A DNA stretch of 64,000 bases from Octopus vulgaris (Eukaryota). How positions within the stretch are numbered: position 1 is the stretch's first letter; each line of letters opens with the position of its first letter. Under the pieces are notes generated by a model. That model was not told where the DNA came from. It searched no databases and worked only from the letters and a program-made list of their open reading frames with translations. Both the position numbers and the translations under genes were made by a program. The stretch spans positions 101,122,001 to 101,186,000 of the forward strand of contig OX597822.1 in NCBI GenBank assembly GCA_951406725.2, read 5' to 3'. Below are positions 4,012-54,448 of this stretch, in pieces.

Positions 4012-4392
4012 AAGCACTCCGTCGGTTACGACGACGAGGGTTCCGGTTGATCCGAATCAACGGAACAGCCTGCTCGTGAAATTAACGTGTAAGTGGCTGA
4101 GCACTCCACAGACACGTGTACCCTTAACGTAGTTCTCGTGGATATTCAGCGTGACACAGAGAGTGACAAGGCCGGCCCTTTGAAATACAGGTACAACAGA
4201 AACAGGAAGTAAGAGTGAGAGAAAGTTGTGGTGAAAGAGTACAGCAGGGATCACCACCATCCCTTGCCGGAGCCTCGTGGAGTTTTTAGGTGTTTTCGCT
4301 CAATAAACACTCACAACGCCCGGTCTGGGAATCGAAACCGCGATCCTATGACCGCGAGTCCGCTGCCCTAACCACTGGGCCATTGCGCCTCC
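4012..4392 (-). mobile_element. tRNA-derived SINE family A, full length
   Basis: tRNA-like head ggaggcgcaatggcccagtggttagggc..ggtttcgattccc (A/B boxes); near-identical to 7407-7791 and 44700-45084; probable TSD gcatacaca. Confidence 0.9.
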
Positions 4393-5164
4393 GCATACAC
4401 ATATACACATACACACACAAAATACGTGATATAAAAGAACGAGAGATATATAAAGAAGCGAGGAAAAGAAAAACAGATATATAAAAATGGCTTCCGAACA
4501 ATTTTCCTGTCTTCTCTCTTCTACTACGGTAACACACAAACGAAACTTAATATTCCTTCTTCAATCCACTCGAAATGTGTTCACGGAAACCTTGCAAATG
4601 ATCTATCTTAGAATACCATTCTTTACTCTACGAATAAATCGTAATGCTATTTTTTTGTGCAGCAATTTTAAGGCATGGGTGTAGTTCTGCGCATGCGCTA
4701 CTATTTTGAATGAGCTCTTCTCTTCACAACATGCTATTGCTGTTCGTTTGTAAAGGAAAAGATATTGTATCTTTTCAGAAGAAACCGATGAAGCAGAACT
4801 CGTCCTTCGATTAAATTGTTTGAATTTTCACAGTCATTGTGGTCGGCTAACACGCAACTCGTCCTATTAGCTTTAGGAGAATATTATAGGCTGAGGAGTA
4901 TTTAGTAGATGAGTTAAGAAATACTTCTATTAATAACTGTACGAGCGAGCGAATTAGACTTGGTAACAAAGGAATTGGACTGTTTTTTTCAATGTCAAAC
5001 ACGAAAACTATTCTTTCAAACCCTTTGAATGGGCGCTAAAATATAAAATATTACGGAAGGGGAACAAAACAGCTAAACCTCAATACACTCTCTAACAGAG
5101 GGAATAAATTGTATTGACAGACTCTGGAGAGGTGTAGGAAATCGTTTCTCTCCGTGCATTATTA

Positions 5165-7251: not shown

Positions 7252-7406
7252 TACATACATATACGTATATATATGTGTATCTGTGTGTATGGATTGTTGA
7301 AAATTTGTGATTACAAACGAAGAAAATAGCTTTCCGTACATCGAGTATAATATGTTTTATTAAAGGCTAAAGCATCTGAATCATGCAAATGTATATATAC
7401 GTGTGT

Positions 7407-7791
7407 GGAGGCGCAATGGCCCAGTGGTTAGGGCAGCGGACTCGCGGTCATAGGGTCGTGGTTTCGATTCCCAGACCGGGCGTTGTGAGTGTTTATTGAG
7501 CGAAAACACCTAAAAAAGCTCCACGAGGCTCCGGCAGGGGATGGTGGTGATCCCTGCTGTACTCTTTCACCACAACTTTCTCTCACTCTTACTTCCTGTT
7601 TCTGTTGTACCTGTATTTCAAGGGGCCGGCCTTGTCACTCTCTGCGTCACGCTGAATATCCCCGAGAACTACGTTAAGGGTGCACGTGTCTGTGGAGTGC
7701 TCAGCCACTTACACGTTAATTTCACGAGCAGGCTGTTCCGTTGATTCGGATCAACCGGAACCCTCGTCGTCGTAACCGACGGAGTGCTTCC
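7407..7791 (+). mobile_element. tRNA-derived SINE family A, full length
   Basis: head with A/B boxes; 3' end cctcgtcgtcgtaaccgacggagtgcttcc; TSD atatacgtgt. Confidence 0.92.
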
Positions 7792-12482: not shown

Positions 12483-12537
<55 letters not shown>

Positions 12538-12682
12538 CAGAATTTAGGATACTTGGAATATGTTTGTCACATATTTCAACTACTAAAAGGCAAATAGACT
12601 ACACTTACTGTGGAGAATAAATTTATCTTATGGTAAAAAGGTGTGAAAACACTGTTTCGTTCAGTGTCGCCCTCTATTAGGA

Positions 12683-12730
12683 ATCGCAGACATCGATGTT
12701 TCGAGCTATTTTGGCTCTCGTCAATGAGAT
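12683..12730 (-). ncRNA. type I minimal hammerhead ribozyme-like motif
   Basis: minus strand AUCUCA-UUGACGA-GAGC(caaaaua)GCUC-GAAA-CAUCGAUG-UC/UGCGAU; GUC triplet, palindromic helix III, C3-to-U variant. Confidence 0.65.
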
Positions 12731-12772
12731 GTATCTAAGAGAGTCAACCCTGAACGAACTTAGAAAACTATG

Positions 12773-12848
12773 ACCCGGTCTGGGAATCGAAACCGCGATC
12801 CTACGACCGCGAGTCCGCTGCCCTAACCACTGGGCCATTGCGCCTCCA
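12773..12848 (-). mobile_element. SINE family A head-only fragment inserted in the fold-back
   Basis: cccggtctgggaatcgaaaccgcgatcctacgaccgcgagtccgctgccctaaccactgggccattgcgcctcc; absent from the opposite arm. Confidence 0.88.
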
Positions 12849-13379
12849 CATAGCATTATATATAATCTAGTCAATACATTGACTAATTTTTGCTAGCAGA
12901 TCGCCCGATCGAAGTAAACAACGAAGCAGTTTTTAGGTATGAGCAGAATTTAGGCTAGCCGAAATATATCTGTCACATATTTCAACTGCTGGAAGACAAA
13001 TACACTTGCCTAAATTCTGCTCAAACCTAAACACCGCTTCGTGTTAACACTTCGTTGTTTACCTCGATTGGGTGATCTAGTAGCACAAATCAGTCAATAT
13101 ATTGACTGGAATATACATAAAGCTAAAGCTTTCTAAGTTCGTTCAAGGATGCCTCTCTTAGGTAGAGGCAAAATAGCTCGGAACATCGATGTCTGAGATT
13201 GCTAATAGAGGCGACACTGTATGAACCGGTGTTTGCACACCATTTTATCTTAAGAGACATTTATACTCCACAGTAACTGCTGTGGGATTGCATTTTAACA
13301 GTTAAGATATGCCAGAAACATATTTCAGCTAGCCTAAATTCTGCTCATGCATAAAATCTGCTTCGCGCAAACGCTTCGT

Positions 13380-13802
13380 TATGTATACATACGTATTTAT
13401 GTATGTATGTATGTATGTATGTATGTATGTATGTATGTATGTATGTATGTATTAATATGTGTGTGTATATGTATGTACGCATGTATGTATGTATGTATGT
13501 ATGTATGTATGTGTCTATGTATCTATGTACACACACACACACACACATACCAGTTTCAAAAATTAAACAGAGGAACTACTAAGAAACTTATGTAAAATTC
13601 AAATACAAGATAAGGACATGCTCGTTTTTTGTCAATTATCGTCGGAAAAATCATTACTATTTCACGCCTCATATATATACATACATGCACATATATATAT
13701 ATATATGTGTCATATATATACATACATGCACATATATATATACGTATACATACACACACGCACATATGTGTGTGTGTGTATGTATATATCTGTATTTATA
13801 TG

Positions 13803-14726: not shown

Positions 14727-15148
14727 TAAACTCTTTTGTTAGATATTTCTTTTGAAATACACTACTTTTGTTTCAAATAATTATGGAAATAATTAATTTA
14801 ATAAAATAACTTAATAACTGACTAAGCTGGTGTTTAGAATATAATCCTTTTGTTATCATATTTTCCGAAATACACAGCCTGTGTTTCAAATAATTATGGA
14901 AATAATTAATTTAATAAAATAACTTAATAATTGATTAAGCTGGGGTTTAGAATATAATCCTCTTGTTATCATATTTTCTGAAATACACTGCCTGTGTTTC
15001 AAATAATTTTGGGAATAGTTTAATAAAATAATTTGTCATTATTAAGCTGGTGTTTAGAACATAAATTAACGTGGAATTTAAGACAGGAAATTTATATCAT
15101 AAAACAAAACCAGGACAGTCTCATATAGGTTGGTATGAAAATGGTTTC
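14727..15148 (+). mobile_element. degenerate TTAA-type (piggyBac-like) MITE with internally triplicated ~110-bp segment
   Basis: unit gaaatacac..tgtttcaaataatt..taagctggtgtttagaa occurs three times; ends resemble ttaaccctt..aagggttaa termini, though degenerate. Confidence 0.5.
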
Positions 15149-20174: not shown

Positions 20175-20667
20175 AATGAGGTGGCGAGCTGGCAGAATCG
20201 TTAGCGCATCGGACAAAATGCTTACCGGCATTTCGTTCGTCTTTACATTTAAGGCGGCAAGCTGGCAGACACGTTAGCGCGCCGGGCGAAATGCTTAGCG
20301 GTATTTCGTCTGTCGTTACGGTCTGAGTTCAAATTCCGCCGAGGTCGACTTTGCCTTTCATCCTTTCGGGGTCGATAAATAAAGTATCAGTTTCGCACTG
20401 GGGCCGATGTAATCGACTTAATCCCTTTGTCTGTCCTTGTTTGTCCCATCTGTGTTTAGCCCCTTGTGGGTAGTAAAGAAATAGGTATTTCGTCTGTCGT
20501 TATGTTCTGAGTTGAATTTCCGCCGAGGTCGACTTTGCCTTTCATCCTTTCAGGGTCGATAAATAAAGTACCAGTTTCGTACAGGGGTCGATGTAATCGA
20601 CTTAATCCCTTTGTCTGTCCTTGTTTGTCCCCTCTGTGTTTAGCCCCTTGTGGGCAATAAAGAAATA
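20175..20667 (+). mobile_element. multimeric SINE family C (extra head, unit, headless unit) with 16-bp TSD
   Basis: TSD tattataatgacctca at 20159-20174 and 20668-20683; internal junction aaagaaata|ggtatttcgtctg. Confidence 0.88.
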
Positions 20668-24438: not shown

Positions 24439-24878
24439 CGTAACGGCAGACGAAATATCTATTTCTTTACTACCCACAAGGGACTAAACACAGAGAGGAC
24501 ACAAACAAGGACAGACAAACGGATTAAGTCGATTATATTGACACCAGTGTGTAACTGGTACTTATTTAATCGACCCCGAAAGGATGAAAGGCAAAGTCGA
24601 CCTCGGCGGAATTTGAACTCAGAACTTAAAGACAGACGAAATACCTATTTCTTTACTACCCACAAGGGGCTAAACACAGAGGGGACAAACAAGGACAGAC
24701 GAACGGTTTAAGTCGATTACATCGACCGCAGTGCGTAACTGGTACTTAATTTATCGACCCCGAAAGGATGAAAGGCAAAGTCGACCTCGGTGGAATTTGA
24801 ACTCAGAACGTAACGGTAGACGAAATACGGCTACGCATTTCGCCCGGCGTGCTAACGATTCTGCCAGCTCGCCACCTT
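24439..24878 (-). mobile_element. multimeric SINE family C (unit, headless unit, start of a third unit)
   Basis: repeated junction cagacgaaatacc|tatttctttac. Confidence 0.85.
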
Positions 24879-44699: not shown

Positions 44700-45084
44700 G
44701 GGAAGCACTCCGTCGGTTACGACGACGAGGGTTCCGGTTGATCCGATCAACGGAACAGCCTGCTCGTGAAATTAACGTGTAAGTGGTTGAGCACTCCACA
44801 GACACGTGTACCCTTAACGTAGTTCTCGGGGATATTCAGCGTGACACAGAGAGTGACAAGGCCGGCCCTTTGAAATACAGGTACAACAGAAACAGGAAGT
44901 AAGAGTGAGAGAAAGTTGTGGTGAAAGAGTACAGCAGGGATCACCACCATCCCCTGCCGGAGCCTCGTGGAGCTTTTAGGTGTTTTCGCTCAATAAACAC
45001 TCACAACGCCCGGTCTGGAAATCGAAACCGCGATCCTATGACCGCGAATCCGCTGCCCTAACCACTGGGCCATTGCGCCTCCAC
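44700..45084 (-). mobile_element. SINE family A, full length, 13-bp TSD
   Basis: TSD tatttaatagatt at 44687-44699 and 45085-45097. Confidence 0.93.
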
Positions 45085-46004: not shown

Positions 46005-46603
46005 GGCGGCGAGCTGGCAGAAACGTTAGCACGCCGGGCGAAGTGCGTAGTCGGATTTCGTCTGCCGTTAAGTTCTGAGTTCAAATTCCGCCGAGGTCGA
46101 CTTTGCCTTTCATCCTTTCGAGGGTCGATAAATTAAGTACCAGTTACGCACTGGGGTCGATGTAATCGACTTAATCCGTTTGGCTGTCCTTGTTTGTCCT
46201 CTCTGTGTTTAGCCCCTTGTAGGTAGTAAAGAAATAGGTATTTCATCTACCGCTGCGTTCTGAGTTCAAATTCCACCGAGGTCGACTTTGCCTTTCATCC
46301 TTTCGGGGTCGATTAAATAAGTACCAGTTACGCACTGGGGTCAATATAATCGACTTAATCCGTTTGTCTGTCTTTGTTTGTCTCCTCTGTGTTTAGCCCC
46401 TTGTGGGTAGTAAAGAAATAGGTATTTCGTCTGCCATTACGTTCTGTGTTCAAATTCCGCCGAGGTCGACTTTGCCTTTAATCCTTTCGGGGTCGATAAA
46501 TAAAGTACCAGTTACGCATTGGGGTGGATGTAATTGACTTAATCCCTTTGCCTGTCCTTGTTTGTCCTTTCTGTGTTTAGCCCCTTGTGGGCAATAAAGA
46601 AAT
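46005..46603 (+). mobile_element. trimeric SINE family C (one head, three body/tail units)
   Basis: junction aaagaaata|ggtatttc occurs twice; degenerate TSD tatataaactatgcattcgg / tatattagctatgtattcgg. Confidence 0.9.
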
Positions 46604-46833
46604 ATATATTAGCTATGTATTCGGAGGAAAGAGTGGGTTAAATGGGTACTGATAAAGGGGAACCCCCCTCCGCCCGAAATATGGCATATACACTTATTAC
46701 CCATTGTTGTCTTCGATCTCATTCTTTGTTTACATCTGGTGTCTCGTTACGAAACGTAGTAAAAAAAATCAGTGCTGGCTATAATTTCTGTATAAATAAC
46801 CATAACAAAATCCATCTCTAAAGTATATAATGT

Positions 46834-51024: not shown

Positions 51025-51340
<316 letters not shown>

Positions 51341-51371
51341 TTATATATATATATATTTATATATATATATA

Positions 51372-54300
51372 ACGTACACCTCACCTCGATGCTCCTACTG
51401 AACATCAGAGGACTGCAAACACTCAGTAACAGGACAAAGATCCCGTTCCTGAGAGACTTAGTTGCATGCAATCAAGCCTTATGCATAGCACTTACAGAAA
51501 CGCACCTGAAACCGGACATAGCAAATGCGGAGTTACACATACCACAGTATGCTGTACTACGGACCGACAGGAAAGAAAGGAGTCATGGAGGTGTTGCTAT
51601 GTACATCCGTGAGGACCTCACACCCCAGGTCCTCTTGTCATACTCAAACTCGGTGTGTGACACACTAATTGTACATATTAGGCAACTTGATGTAGTTGTG
51701 TGTGCTACATATCGCCCTCCAGATGCCCCAAGCCATGTAGGCAAGTTTGAAGACTGCCTTATAAAAATAGAAGAAGTTCTAACCACATTAGAACAACACA
51801 TAGGTGTGCTTCTTATGGGAGACTTCAATCTGCCCAATGTCAGATGGCCCGAGGGCCTTTCTCTCCCAGATGTGAACGAGGACAGGCGAGGTCCCTCCTG
51901 AACCTCATCAACACCCTGTACATGGAGCAGGTAATACTCCAACCAACCAGGGCAGGTAACACACTGGATCTCTGCTTCACAAATGACATGGATCTCATCC
52001 ATAATGTGAAAGTGACACCGACACTACTCTCGGATCACAACATGATAGAGCTGACCATGTACGGGCCAAAAGAGAGCACGGACATGCAGCCTACAAGAAA
52101 CCCTCAAAACCCTCAAAACCCTCAAAATCTTTCCAGCTTGAACTACCATAAGGCAAACTGGAAACAAATTGAGAAAGAGATCCTCAAACAAAACTGGCCT
52201 AAATGTCTCTCCTCGCCGACATCGACGTGAAACTTCAACAATTCATGTCTGTAATGCAAGCCATATGCTACAAATGTGTCCCAGAGAGAAAGGCCACTGT
52301 ACACAAGAACAAAATCCCCAGAGAGAGGAAAATTTTAATGAGACGGCGTACGAAATTTTCAAATCGCCTAAACAAACAGATTGAAAGCAGTGAAAAGTCC
52401 CGCCTAAAAATAAAACTGTTGGAAATCGAAAAATGTCTGCAACTCTCCCATGAAAAAGAAAGAGCAGACAAAGAAGCCTGGGCTATAGAAAACATAAAAT
52501 CTAACCCCAGAGCTTTCTACAGGTATGCCAAAGAAACAGCTACAGTGCACTGTAGAATAGGGCCACTCCTCGAAAAGGATGGCACACTTACAGGAAAACC
52601 AATGAGGGTAAGTGAAATACTGAATGAGCAATTCAAGAGTGTTTTCATTCCACCCCTTGGGCATCTCCAAATCACCAATCCAACTGACTTTTTTACCACT
52701 GCAGATATAAAATCAGAGGTGGCGACGATAGATTACATCGATATAAAGGAAGACGATGTAACCAAGGCTATAGATGAAATGAAAAAAGACTCAGCTACTG
52801 GCCCCGATGGATTCCCGGCAATCCTCCTAAAAGCATGTAAGAGAGTCCTAGCAAGACCACTGCAGTTCCTCTTTCAGAGCTTCCTTGCAGCTGGCAAACT
52901 TCCAGGAAAACTGAAGGAAGGTAAAATATGCCCCATTCATAAAGGAGGTAGCAGAGCGGAAGCCAAGAACTATAGACCTATCTCTCTGACCTCACACATC
53001 AGCAAGGTCATGGAACGAATAGTCAGAAGGAAGCTGATCACCTTCCTTGAAGAGAATGACTTGCTGCCCGACACCCAACATGGTTTCCGACAAGGGAGAA
53101 GCTGTTTAACTCAGCTCCTACAACACTATGACTGGGTGCTGAAACGGCTGCTCAACCACTCAAATGTGGAAGTGATATATCTCGACTTTGCAAAGGCCTT
53201 TGATAAAGTCGATCATGGAATGATATGTCACAAACTGCGTGATCTCAACATAGTTGGAAAACTGGGAGAATGGCTTCATGACTTTCTGAAGGATAGAAGT
53301 CAGGTGGTAGTAGCCAATGGGGCCACCTCCATTAACACACAAATAGTGAGCGGTGTTCCGCAGGGCACTGTTCTGGGACCACTACTGTTCATAATGGCCC
53401 TCTCAGACATGCCCTCAGCCACGCAGAGAGCCACGATCACAAGTTATGCAGATGATACAAAAGTTTCACAGGCAATACAGAACCCTGAGGACACTAAACA
53501 CCTGCAATGTGAGCTGGACGAAATATACAAGTGGGCTGAAAAGAATAGCATGCAGTTCAATGCTGGAAAGTTTCAAGCTTTATACTATCAGCATGCAAAA
53601 CTGAATGCAATACCCAATGAATACACTGGACCCGGAGGGATTGCAATCCCAGAGGCACAATCAGTGCGTGACCTGGGTATTCACATGAGTGATGACGCGA
53701 CCTTTCATGTACATGTTGCTAAACTGACAATGAAATGTAGACGGCTGGCTGGATGGATTCTTAGAACCTTTAGAACAAGAGAACAAGAAACCATGATGGT
53801 CCTCTGGAAGACACTTGTCCTAAGCCACTTTGACTATTGCTCTCAGCTATGGTCACCATCCAGTGTCAAGTTGATCACAGAACTTGAGGCGATCCAACGA
53901 AGCTACACAAAGAAGATAGCCTCTATGCAGAATGTAAGCTACTGGGAAAGACTCAAGAGATTAAAATTATATTCCCTGGAGCGTAGGCGGGAAAGATATG
54001 CCATAATATACATCTGGAAGATCCTGGAGGGAAGTGTCCTGAACTTTGGCATCGAGAGTTACGCAAATGCCAGAACTGGGCGCCACTGCGTGGTGCCTAG
54101 GACTCCAGACCTGCCATCAAGATGTAGGACAAGATTCTGTGATAGCCTGGGCTTCCGAGGCCCACAGCTCTTCAATATCATCCCGAAGAACCTGAGAGAC
54201 CTGCATGGGGTGGATACAGATGTCTTTAAAATGAAGCTGGATCTCTTCCTGTCAGGTGTCCCAGATGAACCAACTTCACGGCAGGAGGGGCAGATGAGGG

Positions 54301-54448
54301 CAGCTGCATCGAACTCTCTCATGCACCAAATAGCAGTTGCTAGAAAGCCCCCATGAAGTGAAACCAAGTAGCAACACCAAATGGCGGTGCCCCAGCATGG
54401 CCACAGCTCATAAGCTGAAACTAGAATCAATCAATCAATCAATCAATC
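51372..54448 (+). mobile_element. CR1-group LINE with near-complete ORF2 (apurinic endonuclease + reverse transcriptase), 3' UTR and (AATC)n tail, embedded in (TA)n
   Basis: APE motifs LNIRGL, LTETHL, GGVAMY, YRPP, MGDFN, PTR..NTLDL, SDH; RT motifs NYRPISLTS, QHGFR, YLDFAKAFDKV, SGVPQGTVLGPLLF, YADD; C-terminal LYSLERRRERY. Confidence 0.95.
51389..54356 (+). pseudogene. LINE ORF2 (endonuclease/reverse transcriptase) split over three frames (51389-51901, 51844-52230, 52203-54356)
   Basis: consecutive overlapping ORFs continue one protein; the 717-aa RT-containing part is uninterrupted. Confidence 0.9.

Follow-up and report, generated by a model that had tools for sequence, protein, structure and literature searches.

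Architecture of the locus

The window, a stretch of 64,000 nucleotides of Octopus vulgaris DNA, contains an insertion built of two inverted arms of a repeat with a 336-nt unit, in which the following features were recognized.

12534..13006, minus strand: left arm, comprising unit positions 272-336 and one full unit; fixed 3' end without a tail, adjoining (TA)18
12683..12730, minus strand: damaged type I hammerhead with a U3-G8 core (UUGACGA), a single mismatch in helix I, and a helix III that is palindromic; cut predicted at 12689/12688
12726..12742, minus strand: empty target site (unit 129-145) of a putatively Tx1-like LINE family; no LINE at the locus
12774..12850, minus strand: SINE head of 77 nt, inserted later, separating the hammerhead from the promoter-like motif; not present in organism D
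12881..12889, minus strand: putative promoter element, degenerate relative to the U1/U2-like upstream motif
13005..13009, no strand: inversion junction, where the two arms, each truncated at its 5' end, meet at unit 272 and 322; shared by organisms B, C, and D
13009..13347, plus strand: right arm, comprising unit positions 322-336 and one full unit
13087..13095, plus strand: AAATCAGTC, putative promoter element; U1 and U2 genes of the genome have a matching motif 50-55 nt upstream
13164..13199, plus strand: hammerhead remnant; a 14-nt deletion just before it has removed the first core box; A13>G
13348..13385, plus strand: Penelope-type tail, the first ~39 nt of the next unit; right arm only

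Comparison of the window with itself aligned positions 12533-12769 with 13127-13348 in inverted orientation at 77% identity (E 1e-51) and a further stretch, 12851-13125, inverted against itself at 71%, bearing out the fold-back that an earlier note on this DNA had claimed. The start given there, 12534, stands, but the end at 13347 does not, since the element continues to 13385 with a tail of ~38 nt; the proposed unit of ~325 bp gives way to the 336 nt of the family consensus, local units being shorter because of deletions. The left arm, whose starting 15-mer is present at both 12534 and 12940, had been described as a full unit plus the start of a second; the full unit remains, and the partial one, read on the ribozyme strand, is the last 65 nt of a unit that precedes the full one. 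The right arm, described as a diverged inverted unit, is indeed a full inverted unit, but it also carries the last 15 nt of another unit, as well as the tail.

The SINE head, which on our own reading we take to be tRNA-like, contains no tRNA gene called by ARAGORN in 12774..12850; it is 96-97% identical to three other copies in the window (4319-4397, 7404-7480, and 45009-45084), and its copy number was very high in all four organisms examined. One contig of X10 has a joint that skips 81 nt at the SINE head, and an organism D contig lacks the head but has the right-arm deletion in common with the window. Contigs of organisms B, C, and D cross the inversion junction of this very locus, and the insertion thus predates the splits of these organisms; in one organism D contig, the base at window position 13007 is A, giving a 3-nt microhomology between the arms at the junction. 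The arms share 3 of 41 derived changes, and both have an extra loop II base that was seen in 10 of about 103 copies of the family. Any target duplication at the locus is masked by microsatellites. Elsewhere in the window, we observed long endonuclease-like and reverse transcriptase (RT)-like LINE frames of 233 and 717 aa (51200-54356, plus strand; apparently young), SINE-like tandem units of 184 bp in two to three copies (20300-20667, 24439-24828, and 46072-46604), and a 113-bp tandem unit (14754-15064).

The minus strand at 12683-12730 matches Rfam RF00163 with 30.2 bits (E 1.9e-4), under the gathering score of 34, in agreement with the hammerhead that had been proposed, and the helices, the GUC site, and the predicted position of the cut (12689/12688) are those given in the earlier note. 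Helix I of the left arm has a single C-C mismatch; in the right arm, the 14-nt deletion takes the 5' strand of helix I together with the first core box. This had been put down as the loss of a CUGA box, and the first core box is deleted, but it was never CUGA: the family core is UUGACAA, and the locus copy reads UUGACGA. There is one hammerhead per arm, as opposed to the two consecutive complete ones by which active retrozymes are recognized in the available sections of 10.64898/2026.07.22.740005, and two same-strand hammerhead sites were found in only 5 of 158 loci of the family. Because the single hammerhead in each arm is damaged, the locus cannot yield a monomer; we predict an inert copy, of correspondingly limited value.

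A retrozyme family with a variant hammerhead core

A search of the genome (2.8 Gb in 227 contigs) with the left arm returned 1,488 candidate places, the best nonself identity among the 40 scored being 87%. The consensus unit of 336 nt was derived from 75 distinct loci, and 103 arms diverge from it by 5-19% (median, 11%), with no young copy among the top matches; the longest frame in the unit, 74 codons, lies on the opposite strand, and the unit is noncoding. The family hammerhead is of type I, with three helices around the core and helix I open. A noncoding unit of 150-400 nt with such a hammerhead, arranged head to tail and without a long terminal repeat, is a retrozyme by definition, and the description of the locus as a relic of a noncoding ribozyme retroelement family holds for this ORF-free unit and its divergent arms.

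The core is not the standard one. The 158 loci furnished 146 complete pieces, in which U outnumbers C by 131 to 6 at position 3 and by 95 to 42 at position 4, and A outnumbers G by 123 to 17 at position 8. Sorted by core type, 96 copies comprised 72 with U3-A8, 15 with U3-G8, and none with C3-G8; by the last criterion, the standard core C3-U4-G5-A6-N7-G8-A9 is absent from all 96, so that collecting copies with an intact CUGACGA, as had been suggested, would have misled. CpG decay was ruled out as the origin of UUGA or A8: the mirror changes were rare (G5>A in 3 and C7>T in 11 of the 146 pieces), for which reason we regard U3-A8 as the master state and not as a product of decay. According to the accessible parts of the respective papers, the U3-A8 core is a natural variant in schistosome Penelope hammerheads (PMC4209133), and U4C lowers activity in vitro yet permits viroid infectivity (PMC3088659); no report on the kinetics of C3U/G8A was found in the literature. 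As 42 of 146 copies carry the activity-lowering U4C, cleavage may not have been needed for spread, and the U3-A8 and U4C subgroups offer a way to ask whether spread needs cleavage. A further subgroup (L143, L199, L206, and L221), in which the core is UCGAAAA and helix II starts from a U-U pair at its base, spread nonetheless, and a separate repeat family (L149, L150, and L153) gave hammerhead matches with a helix II insert of ~60 nt.

The three helices were paired in 91.7% of 1,108 cells across 30 aligned copies, against 29-41% in slid controls, and 12 of 96 copies, the window locus not among them, keep the core and all 13 pairs. The helix covariation that the earlier note had proposed to look for in other copies is seen at helix II pair 4 (U-A in 52, C-G in 23, C-A in 13, and U-G in 1); the score for the whole structure is weak, being equaled in 32 of 500 shuffles, and since 10 of the 16 double changes fall on that pair, the covariation comes mostly from one position and may represent a single event. 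Folded as a circle, the consensus reaches -112.7 kcal/mol, compared with -61.5 +/- 4.9 kcal/mol for 60 shuffles (z -10.5), and the opposite strand folds equally strongly. No kinship of the unit with other hammerhead repeats was detected in a comparison with six RF00163 loci (73 of 263,217 candidates scored).

Insertion footprint and the nature of the template

Arm orientation was established for 95 loci located by their 3'-end motif (the first 100 of 181 matches, with duplicates merged): 47 were inverted with the 3' ends pointing outward, none inward, and 48 had a single orientation, at least 1 of these concealing a tiny inverted arm. The full set of loci gave 83 inverted pairs for examination; both ends could be assigned in 50 of them, and 46 of the 50 combined a plain end (at ~336) with a tailed end (~20-39 nt further), i.e., two fixed 3' registers ~39 nt apart. 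Of these 46 pairs, 15 had no microsatellite ends, and a target duplication score of ≥9 was reached by 10 of the 15 but by only 4.3% of 210 mismatched controls, and 55% of ends touched a microsatellite, compared with 12% of background windows. With an inverted 5'-truncated copy, a tail on one side, and a target duplication, the insertion footprint of the family is that of Penelope. A layout of tandem and inverted copies with a tail is described as standard for Penelope-like elements (10.1101/2021.04.23.441226), and purified anole Penelope protein is reported to extend both strands from two internal start positions, by which the tail is defined (PMC11167929).

Both outer ends of a locus consist of the same sequence in inverted orientation, as would be the case in a MITE or foldback DNA transposon with long terminal inverted repeats, and the earlier note had allowed for the unit being such a terminal repeat. 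That origin is scarcely credible: arm lengths (63-422 nt from the 10th to the 90th percentile) and the junction vary freely, the tail is one-sided, units run head to tail, and the target duplications are long; the varying 5' truncation is in itself sufficient to refute it.

More serious, albeit improbable, is the proposition that an old autonomous Penelope-like element had this unit as its pLTR and left the loci behind as truncated stumps, since the tandem, inverted, and tailed layout just described is the standard one and U3-A8 cores occur both in the Penelope pLTRs covered by PMC4209133 and in young Penelope-like elements of this genome, which combine a 781-aa RT plus GIY-YIG ORF with a minimal hammerhead. 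Against it, overlong arms run back into the unit and not into an ORF, and the sole upstream flank common to the repeat loci was a LINE. No ORF with RT and GIY-YIG domains was present in the window or continuous with an arm in 158 loci; Penelope protein matches lay near 2 of the 158, neither joined to the arm, and the adjacency to PLE ORFs that the earlier note had thought worth examining thus came to nothing. The search for a partner drew on 30 loci from a GIY-YIG search (150 of 6,136 candidates scored), on a further 10 loci of greater length, and on 29 loci of a second RT family; among these 69 Penelope loci from the best-scoring young families, none had DNA similarity to the unit. One apparent retrozyme-Penelope chimera, L129, was ruled out because a tiny inverted arm closes the insertion before an unrelated element begins. 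Two side observations concern Penelope-like sequences: a 727-aa frame that resembles a Penelope-like protein (L258, 3858-6038, plus strand) lies 2.3 kb from a repeat copy without being joined to it, and the young family with the 781-aa ORF (L094, L099, and L240-L245) has a zinc-finger linker, an overlapping upstream ORF of 300-440 aa, and its minimal U3-A8 hammerhead ~1 kb past the 781-aa ORF, and ends in (TA)n. Of the two possibilities raised in the earlier note, a retrozyme or a Penelope pLTR system, the retrozyme-type monomer and the Penelope layout were thus combined, the monomer having no ORF link in 158 loci.

The predicted cut is crossed by 81 of 162 arms, and 27 of 121 arms exceed one unit, the longest reaching 795 nt; the template was thus either circular or uncleaved. 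A pile-up of 5' ends at the cut was considered and dropped, as 3 of 94 junction 5' ends fell within 6 nt of it, about the level expected by chance; together with the arms that cross the cut or exceed the unit, this lack of a peak indicates that a cleaved linear monomer was not the main template. Two arms from a single locus have 15% of their derived changes in common, compared with 5.5% between loci, and 1 of 158 loci spans the region from the promoter through the second cut site. The template might have been uncleaved read-through RNA from a tandem master, with the same element and enzyme but a weak or idle hammerhead. The flat distribution of 5' ends, the spread of the U4C and U3-G8 subgroups, the finding that hammerhead mutants did not stop Penelope insertion in vitro (PMC11167929), and the failure of eight of nine Xenopus retrozymes to cleave, as given in the available text of 10.64898/2026.07.22.740005, all speak for this, but the full three-helix fold and the compensatory pair are kept across subgroups and an arm of 795 nt is compatible with a circle; on balance, we think an idle hammerhead unlikely without dismissing it.

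Our preferred reading, to which we assign a probability of roughly three in four, is that the locus preserves, in decayed form, the two-armed insertion of an old retrozyme with a 336-nt unit, probably written by a Penelope-type RT on circular or uncleaved multimeric RNA. The proposed sequence of events would begin with transcription from a U1/U2-type promoter inside the unit, starting slightly upstream of the hammerhead; two successive hammerheads would excise a monomer, which would be closed into a circle; Penelope protein acting in trans would prime at two registers, one for each DNA end, and extend both broken ends on the circular or uncleaved multimeric RNA; and the two 5'-truncated cDNAs would then join head to head.

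A LINE family at one base of the repeat

The LINE upstream of the repeat proved to be inserted at unit position 129, co-oriented with the unit and just upstream of the hammerhead. Two loci have insertions at this base with a 17-bp duplication from a first LINE family, which was ruled out as site specific, since it was at the site in 2 of 24 places and elsewhere in the repeat in 1 more; a second, related family, found at unit 129 in seven more loci, is the site-specific one. When located by its 3' untranslated region alone, this LINE had the target immediately behind its end, or behind a single interruption, in 25 of 30 loci (in 24 of 29 if the query is left out), 19 of them with the repeat body and 6 via a stack or insert; with the addition of 10 lower matches, the figure was 27 of 40 scored, from 73 candidates. 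For comparison, the accessible text of PMC4494074 recognizes target specificity where >20% of copies are flanked by one target. The LINE is present in 5 of 60 sampled loci that cover the site, and neither of the two target sites in the window contains one.

Copying of the LINE and the repeat together as one chimera was considered and is not the rule, because both repeat halves flank full and variously truncated LINE copies; different repeat subgroups were struck, and one array was struck twice. In about 12 LINE loci, the upstream repeat half was absent within the examined range, and some hitchhiking or target deletion is thus possible. The target precedes 19 of the 25 LINE 5' ends, and C at unit 137 occurs in 11 of 19 upstream target copies, compared with 5 of 157 family copies and none of 19 downstream (3') copies, from which we infer that the 5' target copy travels with the LINE RNA, which starts inside the repeat.

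One targeting copy has an RT, and an intact relative encodes APE, RT, and zf-RVT domains, its best solved match being L1 ORF2. The family appears to belong to the L1 group and to be Tx1-like, the clade label Tx1 being our presumption. Sister LINE subfamilies (L355-L363, L367, L369, L380, and L383, and L334-L353) each precede a different hammerhead-like core by 20-30 nt, and several more repeat families thus seem to serve as LINE targets. Among 20 U2 loci, 2 (L390 and L397) have LINE relatives whose 3' ends lie directly before the first base of the U2 snRNA gene. Tx1 elements that target other transposons are known (PMC4494074), and no report of one in a retrozyme was found in the literature, although the families may be cataloged in Repbase or Dfam.

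A putative promoter within the unit

The U1 and U2 genes of the genome share a motif that ends 50-55 nt before +1, and the same core motif is present in the unit at positions 64-72, where it is the best-scoring site (8.8 bits with a matrix from eight promoter types), but 102 of 1,000 shuffles reach this score. From the U1/U2 motif spacing, a start near unit 118-124 is predicted, a few bases before the LINE site. A U6-type promoter was ruled out, as the upstream motif of U6 differs. An internal promoter of the U1/U2 type is plausible, and no retrozyme with a proximal sequence element promoter was found in the literature.

The LINE was likely transcribed from this putative U1/U2-like promoter, borrowed from the repeat, because its 5' leader carries repeat sequence; the LINE at unit 129 would in this way use the promoter of its host. 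The alternative is that the site was chosen through endonuclease preference alone, for an ATC-CT-like word that is also present at the U2 start, promoter use being incidental. The motif lies 64-66 nt before unit 128, compared with 56-60 nt before +1 in U1 and U2, a spacing that is 4-10 nt longer, and of the 24 places occupied by the sister family with a TCTCT preference, 2 were at this very base; these points favor a choice by sequence word, whereas the LINE-borne leader that begins inside the repeat (near unit 117 in L470) and the placement of relatives at U2 +1 and ahead of other hammerhead cores do not. Endonuclease preference as the whole explanation seems doubtful to us.

Two organism D RNA runs from 2026, with 12.9 and 12.0 million reads, gave 200 and 121 reads, respectively, that fall on a single copy of the family, in both orientations; 95-96% of them run on into unlike flanks, and their ends do not pile up. 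These reads are consistent with passive read-through and are silent on circles.

A tentative wider picture, to which we give somewhat less than an even chance, is that of a fossil three-tier parasite system, in which a circular hammerhead RNA, carrying an snRNA-type promoter of its own and doubly variant in its core (U3-A8, with U4C as well in one subgroup), would have been copied from both DNA ends by Penelope, while a Tx1 LINE lineage specialized on the start sites of retrozymes and U2 and switched between retrozyme hosts.

Comparison with known systems

The family resembles Penelope-like insertions in its partial tandem and inverted 5'-truncated copies (10.1101/2021.04.23.441226, PMC11167929, and PMC4209133, each as available to us), in the 30-40-bp tail on one end and the microsatellite neighbors, and in a U3-A8 core like that of schistosome Cercyon (PMC4209133); it differs from the Penelope-like elements described there in having no ORF, a canonical instead of a minimal hammerhead, and both arms derived from a small repeating unit. 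Like the target-specific Tx1 LINEs treated in PMC4494074 (Tx1L in Tx1D, Keno in U2, and Tx1-Mar in Mariner-N4), the LINE found here occupies a fixed base in a multicopy element, forms tandem stacks, and probably relies on flanking transcription, and it has a relative at U2 +1; in contrast to those LINEs, its target is a hammerhead retrozyme. We did not find this class of one-base target in print, and it points to where a promoter and a start position would lie within the repeat. Newt satellite 2, a hammerhead repeat, is said to use an internal snRNA-type promoter (PMC2220036), whereas the promoter proposed here is only predicted, from a weak motif match.

The closest counterparts are the metazoan non-LTR retrozymes of coral, mussel, and axolotl (PMC7229834) and of vertebrates (10.64898/2026.07.22.740005), which, as far as these accounts go, share with the present family a noncoding, low-GC unit of ~340 nt, a proposed dependence on Penelope, a canonical type I hammerhead with a 6-bp helix I, a 4-bp helix II, and a palindromic helix III, and head-to-tail units with strong self-pairing; a case from cephalopods was not found in the literature. 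In the available text of the vertebrate study, Penelope dependence is argued from co-occurrence and sequence kinship only (10.64898/2026.07.22.740005), to which our family adds evidence at the level of the insertion, namely, two priming registers, two arms, target duplications, and arms of more than one unit, and it singles out a candidate region of the RNA for recognition by a Penelope protein. In contrast to the retrozymes of those studies, the octopus family is old and probably extinct, occurs mostly as one to two units in fold-backs, and has a U3-A8 core and a U4C subgroup, and its circle is only proposed. The kind of retrozyme is already known from these sources; it is the variant core and the site-specific LINE that set this family apart.
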